Positions 571 to 9,122 of a stretch of 37,874 nucleotides of DNA are shown here, piece by piece. Location of the stretch: positions 124,001 through 161,874 of the forward strand of contig JAWLHB010000015.1 of NCBI GenBank assembly GCA_041690595.1. Reading direction: 5' to 3'. Each line of letters starts with the position of its first letter. Positions within the stretch are counted from its first letter, which is position 1. The DNA comes from Lentisphaeria bacterium (GTDB lineage Bacteria > Verrucomicrobiota > Lentisphaeria > JABSQK01 > JAWLHB01). Position numbers and translations under genes: made by a program. The notes beneath the pieces are model-generated. The model worked only from the letters and a program-made list of their open reading frames with translations, was not told where the DNA came from and did no database searches.

Positions 571-2049
571 TCAGTCGCCCGCGTCCTTCTCCAGCGCGTC
601 GCCTTCCGCCGGTGCCACCACGGATTCTGTCTCCGACATGGCAGGCGCCGGTTCATACGCCTCGCTGGAAACCTCCGTCGGAGCGGATTTGGGAATCATC
701 CGATTGATGTCGTGGAAGGTGACGTAGAGCATGAAGCCGATGATCATGAAGGCAAACGCATAGGTCAGCGGCAGCGCCACGCGGCTCGGCACGCGCCGCC
801 CAGCGATTCCTTCGACCAGCCCGAAGACAATGTGGCCGCCATCGAGCACCGGCACCGGCAGCAGGTTCACGATCGCCAGACTGAAGGTGATGAGCACCAC
901 CAGGTTGATCCCGTACATGAAGCCCGCGTGAAACGACTGCGTCATCGCCTGCACGATCATCACCGGGCCGCCCATGTTGCGGGCGCGAATCGGGTTGAGC
1001 CGATCGAAGAGGCTGCGCAAGGTGCGCGCCGTCAGGTTGATCACCTCCGTGAACTGCTTCCAGGGGGTCGGATGCAGGCGGACAATCTCCACCTTCGGCG
1101 CCAGCCCCAGGCCCAGCATCCATTGCACCCGCCCCTCGATCTCCCGTTCCTTCGCCTGAATCCCGGCGATCTCCAGGATCTCGTCGCCGCGGCGTACCTT
1201 CAGATCCATCGGCGCCCCCTTCGACGCCTTGGTCGTCTCGATCAGCACTTCCGAATTGAGCACGTCCCGGCCGTTCACCTCCAGGATCACGTCGCCCGCC
1301 TTCAGGCCAGCCGCCACCGCCGGCGAATCCTCATAGATCATGCTCACCTGCGTCTCGAAGCGCGGCGAGATGAAGGGGAAGCCCACGTTGTCCTGCTGCG
1401 GATTGCCCACCAGCGTATAGCTGATCTGCTTCGGCTCGCCATCTCGGGTGATATCCAGCACCACCTTGGCATCGTCCGCGAAGACAATCTCCTTGACCGC
1501 CGACTCCCAGCCACGGTCAAAACCGCGGCCGTTGACCTTGTGCACGATGTCTCCCGGCTGCAGCCCCGCCTTGGCTTCCGGCGTCGGGCGTCGCTCGCCG
1601 TCAGCAGTCAGGTAAGTCTGCTGGACGGTGCCCACTTCGAAGGAGGTCGCCGGTTTTGGCCCATTATAACCGATTGCCCAAACCATGGTCGCCAGCAGGA
1701 AGCCGAAGAGGATATTGAAAAGCGGGCCGGCGAAGGCCACAATGATCCGGTCGAGCGGCTTGGCGTGCGGTAATGGCTTGCCGTCGCTGGTCTCCACATG
1801 GTCGCCGGGCTCCAACTGGGGTATCGCCACGTATCCGCCAAACGGTATCCAACTCAGGCGGTATTCGATCCCCTTGTAGGTCCACTTCTTGATCGCGTGA
1901 CCGAACCCCACCGAGAATCGTTCCACATGCAGGCCGCGCCAGATGGCCGCCAGCAGGTGCCCGAACTCATGGATGAAGATACAGAACCCAAAGAAAAAGA
2001 GCATCAGGATGATGCTCGGCAGATAACCAATATCGATCATTCCCAGCAT
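571..2049 (-). CDS. rseP: RIP metalloprotease RseP (M50 site-2 protease with two PDZ domains)
   Basis: HEFGH zinc motif, 'FSVGFG', 'IPFGGYV', 'AGPLFN', two PDZ-like segments (AGLQPGD / AGLKAGD), C-terminal NLLPVPVLDGG. AGGAG lies upstream of the ATG. Confidence 0.95.
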   Translation of the reverse strand: MLGMIDIGYLPSIILMLFFFGFCIFIHEFGHLLAAIWRGLHVERFSVGFGHAIKKWTYKGIEYRLSWIPFGGYVAIPQLEPGDHVETSDGKPLPHAKPLDRIIVAFAGPLFNILFGFLLATMVWAIGYNGPKPATSFEVGTVQQTYLTADGERRPTPEAKAGLQPGDIVHKVNGRGFDRGWESAVKEIVFADDAKVVLDITRDGEPKQISYTLVGNPQQDNVGFPFISPRFETQVSMIYEDSPAVAAGLKAGDVILEVNGRDVLNSEVLIETTKASKGAPMDLKVRRGDEILEIAGIQAKEREIEGRVQWMLGLGLAPKVEIVRLHPTPWKQFTEVINLTARTLRSLFDRLNPIRARNMGGPVMIVQAMTQSFHAGFMYGINLVVLITFSLAIVNLLPVPVLDGGHIVFGLVEGIAGRRVPSRVALPLTYAFAFMIIGFMLYVTFHDINRMIPKSAPTEVSSEAYEPAPAMSETESVVAPAEGDALEKDAGD

Positions 2050-2185
2050 GAGCTTAGGATCTCCTGTTGTGATAGCGGATAATAACCCTGAAAAGATAAT
2101 GCAAGAGCACGATAGTTACAAGGTGTCAACCATACCTGTAGACCCCACCCAGCCCGAAGAGTTGCATCCAGCCAAGCTTGCCGAG

Positions 2186-2665
2186 GCCCCCTGGGCACGC
2201 CACTCGCCTGAGTGGCTCCGGCGTTGGACCTTGCCACTTCCCAACCTCCATCACCACTCCTCCCGCGCCCCTTGGGCACGCCACTCGCCTGAGTGGCTCC
2301 GGCGTTCGACCTTGCCCTTTCCCAACCTCCCATCACTGCTCCCGCGCCCCCCTTGCTTCCTCTTTGCGCCCCTTGCGTTCTTTGTGGTTAAACACCTTGC
2401 CCCTCGCCCCATCCCAACCTCCATCACCCCTCCCGCGCCCCCTGGGCACGCCACTCGCCTGAGTGGCTCCGGCGTTCGACCTTGCCCCTTCCCAACCTCC
2501 ATCACCCCTCCCGCGCTCCCCTTGCTTCCTCTTTGCGCTCCTTGCGTTCTTTGTGGTTAAACACCTTGCCCCTCGCCCCATCCCAACCTCCATCACCCCT
2601 CCCGCGCCCCCTGGGCACGCCACTCGCCTGAGTGGCACCGGCGTTCGTCCTTGCCACTCCCCAAC
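2186..2665. repeat. Modular repeat array: four REP-like palindromic units (A) and two purine/pyrimidine-skewed units (B) on a shared linker, order A-A-B-A-B-A
   Basis: A = (C/T)TGGGCACGCCACTCGCCTGAGTGGC at 2191, 2272, 2442 and 2611, with hairpin GCCACTC-GCCT-GAGTGGC. B = CTCTTTGCG(C/C)(C/T)CCTTGCGTTCTTTGTGGTTAAA at 2360 and 2529. Linker is approximately CCTTGCCC..CCCAACCTCCATCACCCCTCCCGCGCCCC. Confidence 0.95.
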
Positions 2666-2718
2666 GCCTGGCTCCCCCTCGCCACCCCACTGGTCCCGGC
2701 GTCTCCTTTTGCCCCCTT

Positions 2719-2807
2719 GCCCCAACGGGGCTGCGTCCTCCAGCCCAGGGTTGCCCTCGGGCTACCCTGGGTAAACTCCCGCCCACCCATCAACCCTGAA
2801 CGGGTTG
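2719..2807. repeat. Triple-hairpin REP/MITE-like element
   Basis: Three dyads: GCCCC-AAC-GGGGC (2719-2731), CCCAGGGTTGCCC..GGCTACCCTGGG (2744-2771) and CAACCC-TGAAC-GGGTTG (2791-2807). The layout resembles palindromic elements found beside IS200/IS605-type Y1 (RAYT-like) transposases. Confidence 0.6.
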
Positions 2808-2955
2808 CGTCCACGCCGTCGGCCCCTTCCCGCGTGCGCTCAATTTCCACGGGACTCAATAGTGAGGCGTTCTCCGAACCGCGACTTGGGCCGTTTCCAA
2901 CGGCCCTGCCATTGCCCCTCCTCGCGTGACTGCCATCGCCCCTCCCCCCGAAAAG

Positions 2956-3179
2956 CTCGGTCGACAGCTCGGTCCCAGATAACCTCGGTCGACAGCTCGG
3001 TCCCAGATAACCTCGGTCGACAGCTCGGTCCCAGATAACCTCGGTCGACAGCTCGGTCCCAGATAACCTCGGTCGACAGCTCGGTCCCAGATAACCTCGG
3101 TCGAAAGCTCGGTCCCAGATAACCTCGGTCGAAAGCTCGGTCCCCAAAAACCTCGGTCGACAGCTCGGTCCCCAAACCT
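2956..3179. repeat. Tandem repeat, 8 x 28 bp (CTCGGTCGACAGCTCGGTCCCAGATAAC)
   Basis: Units start at 2956, 2984, 3012, 3040, 3068, 3096, 3124 and 3152. The first five are identical and the last three carry substitutions. There are no spacers. Confidence 0.98.
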
Positions 3180-3207
3180 GGGTGCCGAAGCCCAAAAACC
3201 GGAACCT

Positions 3208-3267
3208 CCATCCCATCCATCCTGTCCAACCACGGCTCCGCATCCTCTCCCCCACAATCCTGTCCAA
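3208..3267. repeat. Short direct repeat ATCCTGTCCAA x2 (TTGGACAGGAT on the minus strand)
   Basis: Copies at 3219-3229 and 3257-3267; the first is preceded by CCATC reiterations. Confidence 0.5.
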
Positions 3268-3346
3268 TAGTCTTGGCCACTCACCTGCAAACATCCGCCT
3301 CCCCCCATTGCTTCCGTCAAAAACAAAACACTTTTTCGGTCTAATG

Positions 3347-3374
3347 AAGATATCACAAGTAACCCCAAAGTCAA
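3347..3374 (-). promoter_or_regulatory. Putative sigma70 promoter with extended -10, pointing into the repeat island
   Basis: Minus strand reads TTGACT-16 bp-TATCTT, with TGn directly before the -10 and a T-rich tract upstream. It sits in a local AT-rich patch. Confidence 0.5.
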
Positions 3375-3604
3375 GACGAAAAAAACAAACTTTACGCCCC
3401 CCCCCGCTCCATTGCTACGCTAGCCTCCCATTGTCCTATCCCGTCCGTACGTCCGTCCCCACAACGCCCCAGCGTTTGGCCTCTTCAGCTCGCCTCCCCA
3501 ATCTTCCGCTCACCCGCACCGTCCAGAAGTGCCCAACGGTGTGCCCACACATCGTGCCGCCCGAGTCACCTCGCCGTTGTCCAGGCTCTGCCAGACCTTC
3601 GATC

Positions 3605-4132
3605 TCAGGCGCCCGGCGACGGATTGTTGGCGATGGAATCGAGGCTGGTGGGACCTTCCACGTTCGATTGGCGGGGAATGACGCTGAGCGAACCATCTGT
3701 CTCGATGACCACGGCTTCCACCTCGGCCAGGGAAAGTATCCCGGCGTTGCGGATCCCCGCATGGAGCTCATCTTCCGTGATCCGCGCCCGCATCAGCTCG
3801 TCGTGCAGCAGCTGCCCGCGGTAGAAGAGCATGTGCGGCTCGCCCGTCACCAGTTGTCGGATCCAGCGCATCCTGACACTCGACCAGGTGACCACGAACT
3901 GCAGCCCGGTCAGAAGTCCGAACGCCAGCGCTCCATCCGCCAGAGATACGTCCTTGTTCAGCAACGCTGTCGCCAAGGTCGATCCCAGCGAAACGGTAAT
4001 CACCAGGTCGAAGGCATTCATCTTGGAGAGTGTACGCTTCCCCGTCAGCCGCAGAAAGACGATCAGGATGATGTAGGCGAGAATGCCGACAATCAGCAGT
4101 CGGTAAAGGCTCTGCCAGCTATTGAAGAACAT
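3605..4132 (-). CDS. DUF421 (YetF-like) membrane protein
   Basis: 'LRLTGKRTLSKMNAFDLVITVSLGS', three TM segments, 'GEP.ML...GQ' and 'AVVIETDGSLSVIP'. Start placed at MFFNSWQ. Confidence 0.92.
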   Translation of the reverse strand: MFFNSWQSLYRLLIVGILAYIILIVFLRLTGKRTLSKMNAFDLVITVSLGSTLATALLNKDVSLADGALAFGLLTGLQFVVTWSSVRMRWIRQLVTGEPHMLFYRGQLLHDELMRARITEDELHAGIRNAGILSLAEVEAVVIETDGSLSVIPRQSNVEGPTSLDSIANNPSPGA

Positions 4133-4216
4133 GAGCGACACCGGTTGCAGATGAGACTTCGGGAGTGTCATCTACCATAGATGCAGGTGCCGGGGATCGC
4201 GAAATCGCGCGGGCGA

Positions 4217-5116
4217 TCAGAGCTGCTGAACGACCAGGTGCTGCTCCTGGGCAACTTCCACCATCACGTCGAGCATGGCCTGGCGAAGTTTCTCCGCCAC
4301 GTCGGATCGCCTGTAGTGGCGACCATTCTGGAAGGTCTCGGGTATATTGATGGTGACCATGGTGCGCTTGGGCGCCACATAGCACTTCTCCACCTGATCG
4401 GCGGGATCCTCCGTCCAGGTCAGGCCGAATTCCGGAAGGACCGTCTCCCCCAGCCGCTCGACAACTCGGGTCTGAAAGGGCCCCTTGAGCTGATCCACCA
4501 GCTTGTCGTTGAGCGAAATGGGCGGCCGGACGCTGTGGCGGAAAAGATGGATATGCAGCGATCCATTCTCCGCCATGATCACATACGGATCCGCGCAGAC
4601 GGCGGCATTGTTTATGGCGGCCTTATCCAGATCCGTATCGGCAATGAACTTGAGGTTCTGTTCCACGGACGAGCCGGTGAGAATGTGGATGGTCGGACGG
4701 GCCGGTGGCGCGATATTCTTGAAGAGCTGCTGCAACTCCACCTTGTCGACAACCTTTTCGTTCCACAGGAGAACGCCGTCCCGGTCCGTGAAGATGTGCC
4801 GGATCCCCCGCTCCATCGCCATGGCATAGAACTCAATGAAGCCGTCCAGAACTTCCCCGTCGAGAATCACGCCGTGGCGCAGATCAGCGACCCGCTGCCG
4901 GACCTTTTCATGCGCGTTGCCCGGCGCGCCGATCAACCCAAGACCGCTGATCTCGAGGAAGGGCAGGTCATTGGCGCTGTCGCCGATGACCCCGATATGC
5001 TCGGGTTCGATGCGGTGTTCACGCGCAAAACGATGCACCGCCGCGGCCTTGGTGACCAGCGAAGCATCCACCGCATCCGTGGCGGCCGATAGATAAATGA
5101 TATCCTGGCGAGACAT
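4217..5116 (-). CDS. Cof/subclass IIB-type HAD phosphatase, circularly permuted
   Basis: Motif III K23 and motif IV GDSAND (45-50) plus APGNA come before motif I IFTDRDGVL (D111/D113), motif II ILTG (T147) and AENG (182-185). Start at MSRQ avoids overlap with the upstream gene. Confidence 0.8.
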   Translation of the reverse strand: MSRQDIIYLSAATDAVDASLVTKAAAVHRFAREHRIEPEHIGVIGDSANDLPFLEISGLGLIGAPGNAHEKVRQRVADLRHGVILDGEVLDGFIEFYAMAMERGIRHIFTDRDGVLLWNEKVVDKVELQQLFKNIAPPARPTIHILTGSSVEQNLKFIADTDLDKAAINNAAVCADPYVIMAENGSLHIHLFRHSVRPPISLNDKLVDQLKGPFQTRVVERLGETVLPEFGLTWTEDPADQVEKCYVAPKRTMVTINIPETFQNGRHYRRSDVAEKLRQAMLDVMVEVAQEQHLVVQQL

Positions 5117-5187
5117 GTCTGCTTGGTCCTGGGAAAGAGAAAGGGCAAACGACAACAATGCCATCATCAGCCGGAACTGCAAGCGAT

Positions 5188-5931
5188 TCAGACGGCAAAT
5201 AGCAGCAGCACCGAATAGCCGCCCGCTCCCAGGGCAAAGGCAGTGAAGCGGCTTTCCCGTTCTTCCGGCAGCTCCTCCTTGATCACATTGAGCGTGATGC
5301 TGCCCGCCAGAAAGGCAAAGATCAACCCGACCGCCGCCTGTTGCACACCAACAAGCAGACCGATCAGCCAACCTGCCAGCACCGCTGCCGCCATCTGCCA
5401 GCGCCCATGCCGGTGGTAGACCTCCTTGTGGTGCTGGCGCAAGCCGTCATCGACGACTACGAGATGCAGTGCGACCGCCAGGAAGTAAAGCAGGTGATTG
5501 ATCTGGCCCCGGCCAATGAGATGCAGCAGCGAATAGCCGATCAACGCGTTGTACAGACTGAAGAAGACAAGGTGCAGATGGTACATTCGCTTTGAAGGCC
5601 GCTCCGGACTTTTCCGCTCCCCGCCCTGACTTAGCAGCGCCAGCCGCTCCAGTCCATAGAAGGCGACAAAGCCGGCAACCGCAAAGAGATAGGCGTGTCG
5701 CTCGACCATGCCCAACCAGCCGGGAATCGTTTCCACCAGGGTTGCCTGATGGTGTGCCAACTCCGGGAGCAGATGCACAAAGACATAGGCCACGGATGTC
5801 CCCCCGGCGAAGGAAAGCCATGGACTGCGAGGTATGGCCCGAAGCCGCAGAAAGGGGCCGGCAAAAAGGTGGACCAATGCCAGGCCGAAGGCCATGATGG
5901 CGCTGGTGATTTCCGATGCGTCTCCGACCAT
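5188..5931 (-). CDS. Conserved polytopic membrane protein, ZIP-like metal transporter fold suspected
   Basis: About 7-8 hydrophobic segments, 'SFAGGTSVAYVFVHLLPEL', His-containing TM helices, C-terminal 'LAGSITLNVIKEELPE' resembling the ZIP pattern. Confidence 0.65.
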   Translation of the reverse strand: MVGDASEITSAIMAFGLALVHLFAGPFLRLRAIPRSPWLSFAGGTSVAYVFVHLLPELAHHQATLVETIPGWLGMVERHAYLFAVAGFVAFYGLERLALLSQGGERKSPERPSKRMYHLHLVFFSLYNALIGYSLLHLIGRGQINHLLYFLAVALHLVVVDDGLRQHHKEVYHRHGRWQMAAAVLAGWLIGLLVGVQQAAVGLIFAFLAGSITLNVIKEELPEERESRFTAFALGAGGYSVLLLFAV

Positions 5932-6927
5932 CTATACCTCGCTCCAAGTCCACCCGTCCTGCTCGATCGCCGCAAGCAACAGCTTACGCTCCTCCTGCCG
6001 GGCCTTGAGCGACTCCTGGAACTGTTCATCACTCACCATCGGTATACCTTCCTTGCGTAAGGCTTCCAAGGCCGGAAAGGGTGCTGGCTCCGTGGCTATG
6101 TGGAGAAAGAGCGAGTCCAGTACACGCAGGTAATTCGTGATGGTCTCGTCGATGCATCTCAGGGAGATCTCCGATAGCCGCACTTCCGGGGCAACCCCGT
6201 GGCGCAACAGTTGCACCATGTCGTAGAGCACCGCCAGGGAGGGCTGGGTCGCCGTGCGCCGCTCCCCGCTATGAAAGTAATGCAGAACTGGATACGCATA
6301 GTGACGCTGAGCGTGAAGCTCCAGATCGTGACCGAGCTGAATCAGCAGTTGATCGAGCGCTTCAAAGGAATGGCCATTCCACGCTCTCAGGAGAATTTCC
6401 GCTGGCGACTTGCCCATGCTGCTGATCATGCCCGCCAGACGACGCGCCTCAGCGGCTGCCGAAAGCACCGGCAGCAAGTAAGAGATCGCCAGGGTAAGGA
6501 GGATAAGTCCGTTCGCGGAAGCGATGGTCGTCACGATCTGCCATCCGCCGTTCGCCGGCACGTAGTCGCCGATGCCCAGAGTCAGCAGCGTGTAACCGAC
6601 GAAGTACAACCGCGCTGGAAGCTCGGCCGGATGCCGCGCTTGCGAGCTGACCACTGCATCCTCCTGCGCCAGAAAGATCAGCGTCCAGCCGGCCCAAGTC
6701 AGCACCACCCAGATCCCCAGTACGCTGAGCAGGATCACCGGCCCTGTGATCGACAGGAAGCGATGGCTGCGGGTATGATTACCGATCAGGCGCGCAGCCT
6801 TCCACAGGGTTTGGCTGACGAAGTCGGTCAACGGCCCGGCGCCTTGAGTTGCAAGCGTCGTCCAGAACACATCCACGGCGATGAATAGCACGAGGGCGAT
6901 TCCGCCTGCTAGCAGCGCCAGATTCAT
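5932..6927 (-). CDS. Potassium channel family protein (Ion_trans_2) with C-terminal cytoplasmic domain
   Basis: Pore helix/filter 'LYFVGYTLLTLGIGDYVP' flanked by TM helices; C-terminal 'H.AYPVLHYFH' typical of this family. Confidence 0.85.
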   Translation of the reverse strand: MNLALLAGGIALVLFIAVDVFWTTLATQGAGPLTDFVSQTLWKAARLIGNHTRSHRFLSITGPVILLSVLGIWVVLTWAGWTLIFLAQEDAVVSSQARHPAELPARLYFVGYTLLTLGIGDYVPANGGWQIVTTIASANGLILLTLAISYLLPVLSAAAEARRLAGMISSMGKSPAEILLRAWNGHSFEALDQLLIQLGHDLELHAQRHYAYPVLHYFHSGERRTATQPSLAVLYDMVQLLRHGVAPEVRLSEISLRCIDETITNYLRVLDSLFLHIATEPAPFPALEALRKEGIPMVSDEQFQESLKARQEERKLLLAAIEQDGWTWSEV

Positions 6928-6936
6928 GTGGCCTCA

Positions 6937-7788
6937 CTAGGTGTTGACGATCTCGCCGCCATTGGGGTGGAGTACCTGGCCGCTCATATAGCTGGCATCG
7001 CGACTCGCCAGAAAGACGTAGCAGGGCGCCACTTCGCACGGCTGCCCGGCCCGCCCGAGCGGCTGATCGCCGCCAAAGCTCTCCACCTTCTCATCGTCGA
7101 AGGTTGCGGGTATCAAGGGAGTCCAGATGGGGCCGGGTGCCACGGCATTCACGCGGATCTTGCGGTCGCTGAGCGTGCCGGAAAGGGAGCGTGTGAAGGC
7201 AACGATGGCCCCCTTGGTGGCGGCATAGTCGATCAAATGCGGGCTGCCCCGGTAGGCCGTCACGCTGGTCGTGTTGATGATGCAGTCACCCTCTTGCAGA
7301 TGCTTGTCGACCGCGCGCGCAAAGTGAAACATGCTGAAGACATTCGTGCGGAAGGTCCGTTCAACCTGAGCCGCGGTTACGCCCTCCAGGTCCTGGCTCG
7401 GATGCTGCTCCGCGGCATTGTTGACCAGGATGTTCAGGCGGCCGTACGCGTCGATGGTCTCCTGCACGCACGTCTGGCAGAAGTCTTCATCGCCGATGTC
7501 CCCCGCGATCAGGAGGCATTTGCCGCCGTGGCGTTCGACAATGCGGCGCGTATCTTCTGCATCCTCGTGTTCGTCCAGATAGACCAGTGTCAGGTTGGCC
7601 CCTTCTTTGGCAAAGGCGATGGCCACGGCACGGCCGATGCCGCTGTCCCCGCCCGTAATCAGTGCCACCTTTTCCTTCAGCTTGTCACTGGCTCGATACT
7701 CCGGATCGTCCGTCTGCGGCTTGGGATTCATCCGGCTGCGCTCACCAGGCTGCTTGTCCTGATGCTGTGGGGGAAACTGCTTGCTCAT
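6937..7788 (-). CDS. SDR family oxidoreductase (general stress protein 39 / YdaD-YhdF-like)
   Basis: N-terminal 'FPPQHQ..QPG....MNPKP', TGGDSGIG, NNAA, YAATK catalytic motif, 'VNAVAPGPIWTPLIP' and 'GQVLHPNGG'. Confidence 0.95.
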   Translation of the reverse strand: MSKQFPPQHQDKQPGERSRMNPKPQTDDPEYRASDKLKEKVALITGGDSGIGRAVAIAFAKEGANLTLVYLDEHEDAEDTRRIVERHGGKCLLIAGDIGDEDFCQTCVQETIDAYGRLNILVNNAAEQHPSQDLEGVTAAQVERTFRTNVFSMFHFARAVDKHLQEGDCIINTTSVTAYRGSPHLIDYAATKGAIVAFTRSLSGTLSDRKIRVNAVAPGPIWTPLIPATFDDEKVESFGGDQPLGRAGQPCEVAPCYVFLASRDASYMSGQVLHPNGGEIVNT

Positions 7789-7811
7789 GTGACTGTGCTC
7801 CACTGCAAAGG

Positions 7812-7841
7812 TTGTCAATTGACAAAGGTGTTCGTGTCAAT
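7812..7841. promoter_or_regulatory. Candidate operator upstream of the SDR gene
   Basis: Perfect 14-bp palindrome TTGTCAATTGACAA (7812-7825) overlapping ATTGACA-N10-TGTCAAT (7818-7841). Confidence 0.4.
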
Positions 7842-7991
7842 CGTTACCAATTCAGCAGATTCAATGCCAGCGCCGTCAGCCAGGAAAGAGGGCAGACCTC
7901 TCTCCGAGCTGTACAGCTAGGTAAGCACCAGGTGTCATCGGCAAGCAACGATCGTGCGGCGTCGCTTTCATCGCCGCCGCCGCCCGATCCG

Positions 7992-9122
7992 TCAGGCTCC
8001 GGCAGTCTGCAGCCGCGGCACTTCGATCTCGGCAGGAACCGGACCAGTGGAGTCACGCAGCTTCAGCATCACGTGCAGATGTTGCGTGGGCACCATGCCG
8101 TCCGGGGCTTCCAGAGACTCGTGCAGCATCTCGAGCGCCACCCGCGCGGCTTCATCGCGCGGAATCTGCGCTGTCGTGGCCGCGGGATAAAGCATTTCGG
8201 CGATGGGATCGTCGTTCGTTCCCACGACGCTCAGTTGATGGCCGATCTCCAGCCCCAGCGCACTTGCCGCGCGATAAACCTGTGGCAGATGATCGTCCGC
8301 GCAGATCAGGGCGGTTGGACGTTGATCGCTCGACAGCATCTGCTGCACGACGGCGTGCCGTTCCTCGGGCTTGTTGCCGGCATAACGGATCCAGTCACTC
8401 TTCACCGGCAGTGCGCGATCGAGGCAGATGCGGTAGAACGCTTCCCGGCGCAGCACCAGGTCGCGATGAAAGGTCCCTTCGCGTATGCTGTGCAGAAAGC
8501 CGATCCGGCGATGGCCCAGCGCCAGCAGATGCTCCACCTGCAGCTCCACGACCTGAACGGGATCGATCAGCAGGCTGTTCAACGGCATGTCGGAAGCTAC
8601 CGCCGGAAAGAGATTCACATAGGGAATCTCACGATCGTGGAAGTTGTCCAGCAGCTCCACCGCGGGCAGATTGATCAGGACCAGACCTTCGCAGGAGGAA
8701 TTGGTCAGGACGATATCCAGATGCGTCAGCATCTCTTCCTGCGTGGGGATAAGATGGAAGCGAACATTCTGGCCGCCAGCCGTTGCATTCGCGGTCAACT
8801 CGCGCAACAACTCGTCGTGAAAAGGTGCCAGGCGGCGGCGGTCGGCTTCACTCTGAAAATAAACCAGATCGACCTGATCGAGGCGCAGAAGGCGATCCTT
8901 GGCCGTCGATTTCTTGTTGCCCATGAAGATGCCGCGCTGTGGCTGAACTTCTACCAGGCCGTCCTTCTCGAACTCCCGCACCACTTCATTGACCGTGCCG
9001 GGCCCCACCTGACAGTTGGTCATGATCTGGCGAAAAGAAGGCAGCATCTCTCCGGGCTTCTTGCACCGCATGTAACGCTTCAGGTACCGTGCCACTCGAT
9101 CCCGTGTATTGACTCTGGTCAT
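7992..9122 (-). CDS. Transcriptional regulator, GntR-type wHTH fused to a LacI-type periplasmic-binding sensor domain
   Basis: 'PGEMLPSFRQI...VGPGTV....EKDGLV..QPQRGIF', then 'VEHLLALGHRRIGFL', 'PTALICADD' and 'LSVVGTND'. GGAGG RBS precedes the ATG at 9122. Confidence 0.9.
   Translation of the reverse strand: MTRVNTRDRVARYLKRYMRCKKPGEMLPSFRQIMTNCQVGPGTVNEVVREFEKDGLVEVQPQRGIFMGNKKSTAKDRLLRLDQVDLVYFQSEADRRRLAPFHDELLRELTANATAGGQNVRFHLIPTQEEMLTHLDIVLTNSSCEGLVLINLPAVELLDNFHDREIPYVNLFPAVASDMPLNSLLIDPVQVVELQVEHLLALGHRRIGFLHSIREGTFHRDLVLRREAFYRICLDRALPVKSDWIRYAGNKPEERHAVVQQMLSSDQRPTALICADDHLPQVYRAASALGLEIGHQLSVVGTNDDPIAEMLYPAATTAQIPRDEAARVALEMLHESLEAPDGMVPTQHLHVMLKLRDSTGPVPAEIEVPRLQTAGA

Follow-up and report, generated by a model that had tools for sequence, protein, structure and literature searches.

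A HAD-like gene with rearranged motifs

The window analyzed here, a 37,874-nucleotide stretch of DNA from a Lentisphaeria bacterium, carries on its minus strand, at positions 4217-5116, an uninterrupted reading frame of 299 codons plus a stop codon. The encoded protein, P0001, begins with motif III (K23, codon 5048-5050) and motif IV (G45-D46-S-A-N-D50), and also contains 'APGNAHEKVR' and 'LDGF' (residues 90-93). Further along lie motif I, 'IRHIFTDRDGVL' (D111, codon 4784-4786; D113, codon 4778-4780), 'ILTGSS' with the motif II residue T147, and 'IMAENGS' with E183-N184-G185. The motifs thus follow each other in the order III-IV-I-II rather than the canonical HAD order I-II-III-IV. Residues 7-100 correspond to the C-terminal third of Cof-type HAD-IIB phosphatases, and residues 101-299 to the N-terminal two thirds of these enzymes. 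The preliminary description of this DNA had quoted these strings without naming a strand, and a check of the translation and codon positions found every one of them at the residue numbers it had given. The ATG at 5116 agrees with the N-termini of homologues; another ATG lies in frame 17 codons upstream and could be the start, though homologues lend it no support. A promoter and terminator scan of 3300-8200 gave counts not above those of shuffled sequence. The gene and its modules are as follows.

4217..5116, minus strand: permuted HAD-IIB-type protein P0001, 299 aa (open frame, stop codon at 4217-4219)
5060..5116, minus strand: residues 1-19, N-terminal beta-hairpin with strands 6-11 and 15-19 (DSSP of the model)
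4811..5059, minus strand: residues 20-102, normally the C-terminal core half (Pfam, NCBIfam and PDB matches)
4799..4810, minus strand: residues 103-106, four-residue linker forming the permutation junction (DSSP helix 89-102, strand 107-110)
4559..4798, minus strand: residues 107-186, normally the N-terminal core half (profile, hhalign and invariant columns)
4220..4558, minus strand: residues 187-299, main C2-type alpha/beta cap, now C-terminal (model)

The N-terminal hairpin corresponds to the last C2-cap element before motif III in canonical Cof-type enzymes, and its aligned counterparts are residues 179-195 of P0114, a protein with the canonical order, and stretches starting at residue 139 of 1wr8 and residue 201 of 4qjb. 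It leads into the former C-terminal half, which carries K23, beta4 with G45-D46-x3-D50, beta5, 'GAPGNAhekV', beta6 and the terminal 'DGF' helix (89-102). The linker then connects what was the C-terminus to what was the N-terminus, where beta1 with D111-R-D113-G-V, the flap region (113-121), beta2 with T147-G-S-S and beta3 with E183-N-G185 are found; in the DSSP assignment of the model, strand 107-110 directly precedes motif I, residues 113-121 form a short hairpin-like stretch and strand 142-146 directly precedes T147. The main cap contains helices 204-229 and 272-291, strands near 187-189, 242-257 and 295-298, the invariant K250 and the nearly invariant R269. Read circularly, the cap (187-299 plus 1-19) falls exactly between E183-N-G185 and K23, and both new termini lie inside it: the chain ends after strand 295-298 and starts with the last hairpin of the cap.

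Sequence evidence for the swapped order

The likeness to HAD phosphatases goes well past what chance would give. The Pfam Hydrolase_3 model (PF08282) matches residues 21-75 to profile positions 186-238 of 255 (E 1.8e-07), scoring 31.6 bits against a cut-off of 20.9 over only one third of the profile (53 of its 255 positions), and the other half of the protein gives no second Pfam match at E<=10. The NCBIfam Cof model TIGR00099 aligns the same residues to its positions 187-239 of 256, scoring 34.4 bits against a cut-off of 137, and TIGR01484 reaches 20.9 bits, below its cut-off of 41.8. Neither Trehalose_PPase (PF02358) nor PMM is matched in Pfam at E<=10. The best sequence-level matches are to phosphatases, namely Cof, phosphoglycolate phosphatase, SPP, KdsC and PSP.

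A rearranged order predicts two profile matches in swapped positions, and this is what was seen in two comparisons. When a profile built from the family was searched against PDB sequences, the Cof-type enzyme PfHAD1 (4qjb_A) was matched twice (E 2.6e-08), the two stretches having changed places: profile positions 101-195 aligned to chain residues 26-119 (i-E 0.0085) and positions 21-78 to residues 222-277. Similarly, hhalign against 14 canonical Hydrolase_3 proteins aligned query residues 7-96 to template 173-250 (probability 96.6%, E 5.6e-10); its next alignment paired query 108-297 with template 1-200 (E 0.0028, probability 11%), keeping motifs I, II and ENG in register. Taken alone, the sequence evidence for the second half (residues 101-299) is weak. 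Together with the motif positions, the profile and hhalign results agree on the order III-IV-I-II that the preliminary description had proposed.

Structural evidence

We modeled the protein with AlphaFold2 (pLDDT 95.4, pTM 0.91). At Z scores of 6-7, a range that the search tool calls common, and with the two pieces superposed separately by sequence-ordered aligners, which cannot show a permutation, residues 21-104 superpose on the C-terminal core of 1s2o, 3r4c, 1wr8, 4nav and KdsC (75-82 residues, rmsd 1.5-2.1 Å, Z 6.2-7.0) and residues 101-299 on the N-terminal core together with the cap in 6d3v, 4bnd, 1u02 and 5dx9 (138-167 residues, Z 6.3-6.7). For the latter piece, taken from residue 101, 103 or 106 to 299, the aligned spans run over 1-180 of 6d3v, 0-173 of 4bnd and 2-148 of 1u02 (Z 6.3-6.4). 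In a Foldseek search of the PDB, no solved chain matched the whole model in sequence order (none at E<=0.001), and a search of viral structures in BFVD also gave no match at E<=0.001. We infer that the two pieces would form one active site. The helix 89-102, the four-residue linker and beta1 that follow one another in it, together with the position of both termini in the cap and the superpositions, bear out the earlier proposal that the native termini were joined and the chain reopened near the end of the C2 cap.

Residues 10-201 of the model also match classical doubly wound Rossmann-like domains at Z ~8, a result that contiguity of the six core strands would predict. Periplasmic-binding-protein and Rossmann-like chains were the top fold matches, and we read them as reflecting a generic doubly wound core and not kinship.

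A rare and conserved family

The permuted layout, judged from sequence, is rare and conserved. Among 1626 candidates, 53 proteins including the query were recovered at E<=0.001, with 34-48% identity, 79-99% query coverage and lengths of 248-350 aa; a search for full-length homologues thus yielded 52 proteins of ~300 aa that share the order. Among 1,835,955,588 representative sequences, 82 cluster representatives were found at E<=0.001 (72 at <=1e-10 and 44 at <=1e-30). Most of those of ~280-340 aa align co-linearly over residues ~5-295, the others are short or match only in part, and three or more have the canonical order. The ESM Atlas offered, as leads only, a probable cluster for the family itself, with 60 members at 300 aa, as well as further clusters of 323-392 aa that are poor in Hydrolase_3.

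Eleven residues are invariant in 45 aligned homologues (K23, D50, D111, D113, T147, G148, S150, E183, N184, G185 and K250), and D46 is at least 90% conserved. In a set of 33 more distant members, K23 and D50 remain invariant while D46, D111, D113, T147, E183, G185 and K250 are at least 90% conserved. Across the near and distant sets, members are 27-48% identical to the window protein. The statement that all catalytic residues are kept therefore extends from the window copy to the family.

The distribution of the family is sporadic, spanning Acidobacteriota, Pseudomonadota and Woesearchaeota, and the gene was not found elsewhere in its own phylum among 40 relatives and an overlapping sample of 400 genomes. 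One homologue, P0002, is carried by a cultured Methylomonas strain. The family seems not to have been described previously. No dedicated Pfam or NCBIfam model covers it, and the accessible part of the literature on circular permutation in HAD and Rossmannoid proteins contains no description of a permuted HAD. The survey of Burroughs et al. 2006 reportedly lists no permuted family either. The suggestion that this protein may define an unrecognized family thus stands as far as models and descriptions go, but the protein is not alone, as databases already contain ~80 sequence clusters, each either unnamed or labeled 'hypothetical'.

Gene neighborhood

The gene context of the permuted HAD varies between loci. 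Among the 23 other loci whose downstream sequence extends for 300 bp or more, 14 have a gene for a DUF4760 (PF15956) membrane protein directly downstream on the same strand. In the window this position is taken by a YetF/DUF421 gene, and the neighbors further include a weak ZIP-like protein, a K-channel-like protein and an SDR. The idea that the gene sits in a stress-type cluster finds no support, since the window neighbors recur in none of 27 other loci and the recurrent neighbor is DUF4760. DUF4760 was not found in the genome of the window, a weak result because the control of that search matched no genome. Neither the neighboring ZIP-like gene nor the permuted HAD was found in the 40 relatives (of the same order at nearest), so that the insertion site could not be reconstructed.

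The AlphaFold2 model of DUF4760 (pLDDT 85.3) consists of helices only, the N-terminal one being long. Foldseek against the PDB returned nothing for this fold at E<=0.001, and a DUF4760 profile returned nothing among PDB sequences at E<=1. A complex prediction for the permuted HAD and DUF4760, made for one locus pair (L001) with two alignments and without controls, scored 0.00 and 0.00, which gives no verdict on binding. Relatives of DUF4760 occur in phages; in PHROGs they are represented only by phrog_2284, whose function is unassigned there. One copy of the permuted HAD is translationally overlapped by a TIR/ThsB-like gene. PADLOC gave no match for the permuted HAD or for four DUF4760 proteins, the TIR protein of locus L024 alone matching ThsB models.

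The sporadic spread of the family, the TIR/ThsB-like overlap and the phage relatives of DUF4760 lend themselves to a broader reading, which we consider unlikely: that this undescribed family of C2-capped HADs, with a cap built from the chain termini, was ancestrally part of a mobile two-gene module with the DUF4760 membrane protein, acting in inter-genome conflict or an envelope process, and that the window copy is an orphan that lost its partner and was recruited elsewhere.

Origin and function of the permuted protein

Taken together, we conclude that P0001 is very probably a natural circular permutant of a C2-capped IIB (Cof/T6PP-like) HAD phosphohydrolase, and belongs to a rare, conserved family of ~300-aa proteins. 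An arrangement of this type could in principle be an artefact, in which misassembly or gene calling fused two partial tandem HAD genes. Contigs from public runs are of little help on this point: at 85% likeness they came from 4 DNA runs of 2 studies (shares 0.06-0.16), with no RNA run among the candidates, and were mostly 151-194-nt contigs of relatives, and none bridged 4799-4845, which for such short fragments of relatives is uninformative either way. The family itself is decisive. All 45 aligned homologues, drawn from independent assemblies (NCBI, JGI, ENA and Logan), have the same order and a gap-free join, the order recurs in 3 species genomes and 24 metagenome loci, the gene does not differ from its surroundings in GC content (0.59-0.60), and the frame is free of stops. 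Since independent homologues share both order and join, we regard the junction as settled and the misassembly reading as effectively refuted. How the permuted topology arose leaves more room. Duplication, fusion and trimming of a single gene has as its alternative a chimeric origin, in which the 3' third of one HAD-IIB gene was fused before the 5' two thirds of another, the topology being permuted all the same. The nearest neighbors of the two modules do differ: residues 7-95 share 43% identity with the P0114 C-terminus (E 8e-16), the rest of that protein has no significant similarity to residues 100-299, and the first module is Cof/SPP/KdsC-like while the second superposes best on T6PP/PMM-like chains. 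No tandem or fused intermediates were found among homologues of 525-2000 aa, which is weak evidence by the search tool's own statement, and the lack of such long forms counts little. On the other hand, both modules match one Cof-type chain, PfHAD1, in a single profile search, and the divergence is too deep to tell the two histories apart. We therefore hold a chimeric origin to be possible, though on balance doubtful.

With respect to function, the DxD motif is common to HAD phosphatases and mutases, and HAD-IIB includes phosphomutases, so the permuted fold could instead serve a phosphomutase or other phosphotransferase resembling the PMM and alpha-phosphoglucomutase members. Residues 103-299 do match 4bnd, an atypical alpha-phosphoglucomutase that resembles eukaryotic PMMs (Z 6.4, 166 residues; Foldseek rank 40). 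However, T6PP phosphatases match equally well, the top sequence matches are phosphatases and the PMM family is not among the Pfam matches at E<=10, which makes a mutase quite improbable. It is harder still to credit a protein that has kept the fold for binding or regulation but is catalytically dead. In favor of this reading, the branch of the window copy is long (0.96 changes per column), and the DUF4760 gene that accompanies most of its relatives has been lost, but every catalytic residue is retained and is invariant or at least 90% conserved in members as divergent as those described above. This conservation is the pattern of an active enzyme and disfavors the dead-protein reading.

An active Mg-dependent aspartyl-phosphatase is accordingly the best reading of the circular permutant, and is likely given that its catalytic residues are conserved across the family. 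The chain runs from the cap hairpin through K23, D46/D50 and the old C-terminal helix to the linker, then through beta1 and motif I, T147 and ENG into the cap. The core (about residues 20-186) would be one contiguous Rossmann-like segment, with the cap assembled from both chain ends instead of forming an insertion. In the standard HAD mechanism, which the enzyme presumably follows, Mg2+ would be coordinated by D111, D46 and D50, with D111 acting as the nucleophile that attacks the phosphate to give an aspartyl-phosphate. T147 and K23 would hold the phosphoryl group, and D113, as the acid/base, may donate a proton to the leaving group and activate water. Selection of the substrate, a small phosphorylated compound and most likely a sugar phosphate, could fall to the cap residues K250 and R269.

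Comparison with known systems

Few enzyme superfamilies are as large or as well studied as the HAD phosphatases. Their C0/C1/C2 cap classification presumes that the chain order is fixed and that the cap is inserted into it, and their specificity is governed by cap dynamics. The permuted family indicates that nature also uses a rotated HAD order, with a contiguous core and a cap drawn from two chain ends. Because cap dynamics govern specificity, it represents a natural experiment on them; since a domain fused to either terminus would sit at the cap and gate the active site, it may also offer a ready-made engineering scaffold. Annotation pipelines recognize only one third of these proteins and label them 'hypothetical' or fragments. 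In addition, the conserved pairing with the permuted HAD provides a first functional lead for DUF4760, which is itself uncharacterized.

The closest comparison is with Cof-type HAD-IIB enzymes (PF08282, TIGR00099; PfHAD1 4qjb, BT1666 3r4c, YidA 1rkq). The four motifs, the ENG strand, 'GDxxND...NA..vK', the terminal 'DG(V/F)' and a C2 alpha/beta cap between ENG and motif III are common to both. The Cof-type chain, however, runs I-II-III-IV, whereas the window protein has its termini in the cap and a contiguous core. Residues 101-299, including the small alpha/beta cap, find their best structural matches in T6PP/PMM-like HAD-IIB enzymes (6d3v, 1u02, 5dx9, 4bnd); this likeness is structural only, and the C-terminal third of these enzymes follows the cap and does not precede motif I.

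The closest sequence relatives of the first module are the C-terminal 88 residues (cap hairpin, motifs III and IV and NA..V.K) of two canonical-order proteins in the representative library, P0114 (297 aa) and P0115 (276 aa), which are 43% and 38% identical, respectively, to residues 7-97. Both proteins have the normal order, with motif I reading DVHGT and DVDLHKT, and their N-terminal two thirds have no detectable similarity to residues 100-299. The same phenomenon is seen, in an unrelated fold and chemistry, in the GH70 glucansucrases, which PMC11046441 presents as a natural circular permutation relative to GH13, with the catalytic motifs kept and the order of secondary structures rotated.

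Gene and catalytic motifs

The permuted HAD gene (4217-5116, minus strand of the window) comprises 299 codons and a stop in one open frame. Its start ATG at 5116 lies 71 nt past the stop of the upstream gene and fits the N-termini of homologues, which in alignment have only 2-6 residues ahead of the 'YLSA' strand, and its GC content (0.59-0.60) is the same as that of the flanking DNA. An antisense 303-codon ORF (4181-5092, plus strand) is treated here as a shadow frame of this GC-rich gene. Translation reproduced every motif string of the preliminary description at the same residue number, and the codon positions were confirmed on the DNA.

Motifs in the translated permuted HAD
Motif III: K23 in 'LVTKAAAV'
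Motif IV: G45-D46-S-A-N-D50
First third: 'GAPGNAHEKVR'
Residues 90-93: 'LDGF'
Motif I: 'IRHIFTD111RD113GVL'
Motif II: 'ILT147GSS'
ENG: 'IMAE183NGS'

A conserved family shares the permuted order

A word-indexed search returned 53 proteins at E<=0.001 including the query (34-48% identity, 79-99% query coverage, 248-350 aa), and an exhaustive search of 1.84 billion cluster representatives returned 82 at E<=0.001, of which 72 reach 1e-10 or better and 44 reach 1e-30 or better. Near-full-length rows (about 280-340 aa) were mostly co-linear with the query over approximately residues 5-295, the remainder being shorter or partial; at least three matches (P0114, P0115 and P0122) are canonical-order proteins in which only residues 7-97 match, at their C-terminal ends. 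In an alignment of 45 of the 53 proteins, which left out five of 332-350 aa and three of 248-263 aa, the junction is gap-free, K23, D50, D111, D113, T147, G148, S150, E183, N184, G185 and K250 are invariant, and D46 is at least 90% conserved. Among 33 further, more distant representatives (22-42% identity), K23 and D50 are again invariant and D46, D111, D113, T147, E183, G185 and K250 are at least 90% conserved.

A gap-free junction and retained catalytic residues across the family exclude misassembly as the origin of the permuted order, and this conservation argues, at the level of sequence, for a family of active enzymes. No fused or tandem forms of at least 525 aa were found in the homologue search, itself weak evidence.

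Both halves match canonical HADs in swapped order

In searches with the single sequence, the first third alone matched: Pfam Hydrolase_3 aligned to residues 21-75 at profile positions 186-238 of 255 (E 1.8e-07, 31.6 bits), TIGR00099 (Cof) aligned to the same residues at positions 187-239 of 256 (far under its cut-off), and PDB chains including 3r4c and 1nrw matched at their C-terminal ends. When PDB chains were searched with a family profile of the 45 members, both halves matched in a single target, PfHAD1 (4qjb_A, E 2.6e-08). Profile residues 101-195 aligned to chain residues 26-119, pairing DrDGVL with DLDGTL, LTGSS with ATGRS and ENG with EKG, and residues 21-78 aligned to 222-277, the two matches in swapped order that a circular permutation had been predicted to give. 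The family alignment was also compared by hhalign with 14 canonical Hydrolase_3 proteins encoded in genomes of this order and class. The first alignment pairs query 7-96 with template residues 173-250 (probability 96.6%, E 5.6e-10), and the next pairs query 108-297 with template residues 1-200 (E 0.0028, probability just 11%); in the latter, motifs I and II and ENG line up. By sequence, the second half gives a weak signal, yet one that appears exactly where predicted in two independent comparisons.

A canonical Hydrolase_3 (PF08282) gene was seen in 11 of 30 relatives at E<=1e-20 and in none of the contigs of the window's genome (G000) at that threshold; a 277-aa ORF on contig C1 of that genome (locus L005) weakly matches the family's first module.

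Predicted structure and cut point

The AlphaFold2 model of the permuted HAD, built from the 45-row alignment, has a pLDDT of 95.4 and a pTM of 0.91.

Secondary structure elements in the AlphaFold2 model (residues)
6-11 and 15-19: strands
23-33: helix, starting at K23
41-44: strand, then D46
48-54: helix
61-64: strand
70-78: helix
82-84: strand
89-102: helix
107-110: strand, then D111
113-121: short hairpin-like stretch
125-133: helix
142-146: strand, then T147
151-175: helices
180-182: strand, then ENG
187-257: alpha/beta region, with strand 187-189, helix 204-229 and short strands 242-257
272-298: end of the alpha/beta region, with helix 272-291 and strand 295-298

Foldseek matched the whole model to no PDB chain at E<=0.001, since sequence-ordered aligners are unable to superpose a permutant in one piece. 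When VIA-align was run over the Foldseek candidates, the HAD rows fell into two classes.

Two-piece superposition on solved HADs
Model 21-104, on the C-terminal core: 75-82 residues, rmsd 1.5-2.1 A, Z 6.2-7.0 (1s2o 161-244 of 244; 3r4c 183-258; 1wr8 139-228; 4nav; several KdsC)
Model 101/103/106-299, on the N-terminal core plus cap: 138-167 residues, rmsd 3.3-4.0 A, Z 6.3-6.7 (6d3v 1-180; 4bnd 0-173; 1u02 2-148; 5dx9 0-173)

Z values of 6.2-7.0 are modest and common, so that more weight falls on the complementary two-piece pattern of the predicted model and its concordance with the sequence registers. The best rows of a wide fold search were periplasmic-binding-protein and NAD-domain-like Rossmann folds over model residues 10-201 (Z about 8), probably because the permutation leaves six core strands contiguous. 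The modeled core strand order, beta4-5-6-1-2-3, would again form the classical doubly wound 3-2-1-4-5-6 sheet, and we infer that the six catalytic residues converge on one active site.

At the junction, the former C-terminal helix (89-102, with its Cof-like 'DGF') is linked to strand beta1 through four residues, 103-106. The chain now starts with the cap's last beta-hairpin, where residues 7-23 align with 'IHRSDATIDIGALGVSK' (residues 179-195 of P0114, a relative with canonical order), and it now ends after the second cap helix and one further strand. These features place the reopening of the chain within the C2 cap near its end, as had been proposed, and the cap is built from both chain termini. 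The observation of a permuted motif order is confirmed, and its main interpretation, a circularly permuted HAD, is supported.

Several partial sequences start (P0086, P0100, L025 and L026) or end (P0107 and P0110) no more than about 10 codons from motif I (SDRDGVL), at the permutation junction. The L025 and L026 loci have nearly identical DNA there, so this conserved stretch is probably a point where assembly graphs break. Another match, P0087, has its own 14-residue N-terminus ahead of motif I. P0114 and P0115 are the canonical-order proteins closest to the first module; their motif I position reads 'DVHGT' or 'DVDLHKT', and judging from these strings the second motif I Asp may be replaced or displaced.

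Sporadic distribution and genomic context

The distribution of the family is sporadic. A scan of one genome for each of 185,579 species, which used one peptide pattern and therefore undercounts, found three holders, MAGs of Acidobacteriota, Alphaproteobacteria and Woesearchaeota; one homologue is assigned to a Methylomonas strain, and a metagenome scan yielded 24 loci with family genes. The window's genome (8.1 Mb, 97% complete) has one copy. The permuted HAD was found neither in 40 genomes from the window's order or class, the nearest relatives compared sharing only the order, nor in a partly overlapping 400-genome sample of the phylum.

In the window, the gene is part of a same-strand run.

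Neighbours of the permuted HAD gene in the window
6937-7818, minus strand: SDR (Pfam)
5932-6927, minus strand: Ion_trans_2 channel-like (Pfam)
5188-5931, minus strand: ZIP-like, weak (below Pfam cut-off)
3605-4171, minus strand: YetF/DUF421 (Pfam)

None of these neighbours recurs at the 27 other permuted HAD loci examined, leaving the suggested stress-type gene cluster unsupported. Between an RseP-like M50 protease gene (571-2049, minus strand) and the YetF gene lies a GC-rich stretch of 1.5 kb (GC up to 0.68) whose plus strand is rich in C. It carries a 28-nt tandem repeat at 2956-3172 (7.8 copies, 97% match) and four copies of 79-169-nt direct repeats at 2171-2669. Adjacent copies without spacers rule out a CRISPR array, and the long ORFs in this stretch look like repeat shadows.

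The recurrent neighbour at other loci is a same-strand gene for a 162-185-aa DUF4760 protein, starting 3-82 nt past, or overlapping, the end of the permuted HAD gene. Pfam PF15956 matched 11 of 11 such ORFs at E<=0.001 (9 exceed the cut-off), and an HMM built from these 11 found the gene directly after the permuted HAD at 14 of 23 loci with at least 300 bp downstream (L001 6901-7431, L018 1765-2253 and 12 further loci), plus one weak match cut by a contig end; without the near-duplicate loci L022, L009, L014 and L015, the count is 12 of 19. Invariant motifs include 'V.YDR.G.M' and 'Y...F..LA..W.P' (majority consensus 'VAVAYDRVGYM' and 'NYC..F..LAT.WLP'). The modeled DUF4760 protein is helical, with a long N-terminal hydrophobic helix predicted to be a membrane helix; searches for a related fold or function gave nothing beyond a phage family of unknown function. 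The window has no DUF4760 gene beside its permuted HAD, and none was found in its genome by a weak search whose control matched in no genome. In a 21-row tree, which omits the near-duplicates L009, L014, L015 and L022 and the fragments L025, L026 and L029, partner-bearing rows are scattered over deep branches and the window's protein falls, on a long branch, among partner-less rows whose grouping is weakly supported. Loss of the partner in its lineage is plausible. The 138-aa P0117 joins, in one frame, the first approximately 59 permuted-HAD residues, a short cap piece and the C-terminal approximately 45 residues of DUF4760; it looks either like the remains of the two-gene module after a deletion or like a chimera made in assembly.

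PADLOC matched neither the permuted HAD nor DUF4760. At locus L024, a TIR/ThsB-like 759-aa gene (1702-3981; PADLOC ThsB1, E 5.7e-59) shares 26 nt with the start of a divergent permuted-HAD gene (3956-4840), suggesting an operon with a defence-type enzyme. At the Woesearchaeota locus L003 (2406-6278) and a related metagenome locus, L027 (4907-8692), the permuted HAD lies beside two nucleotidyltransferases, a GHMP kinase, a SIS isomerase and a GmhB-like HAD, a gene set reminiscent of a sugar-nucleotide pathway, for heptose or another sugar. At other loci, its neighbours include zinc-ribbon, MazE-like and HTH genes.

Proposed mechanism and comparison with known HADs

Because all motifs that define HAD chemistry are present, the standard mechanism is the best-supported reading, with motif roles that we take from general superfamily knowledge. 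D111 would be the nucleophile that forms the aspartyl-phosphate and D113 the general acid/base; T147 and K23 would hold the phosphoryl group, D46 and D50 would bind Mg2+ together with D111, and the cap would shut over the substrate, with its invariant K250 and nearly invariant R269 as candidate substrate-binding residues. The DxD motif is of the phosphatase/mutase type; that the protein is a mutase instead of a phosphatase seems improbable. Sugar phosphates are the usual substrates of IIB relatives, and by analogy a sugar phosphate is the default guess here.

Relatives are named 'hypothetical protein' in NCBI, UniRef and JGI, with one 'phosphoserine phosphatase', and full-text literature searches, which did not reach the key 2006 superfamily survey, turned up no permuted HAD. 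The permuted HAD is a real, conserved and apparently undescribed topology of a textbook enzyme, accompanied in most relatives by a conserved partner. By its motifs and predicted fold, it would work like a Cof/T6PP-type HAD-IIB enzyme, but the curated models of those enzymes assume a co-linearity from which the permuted HAD departs.
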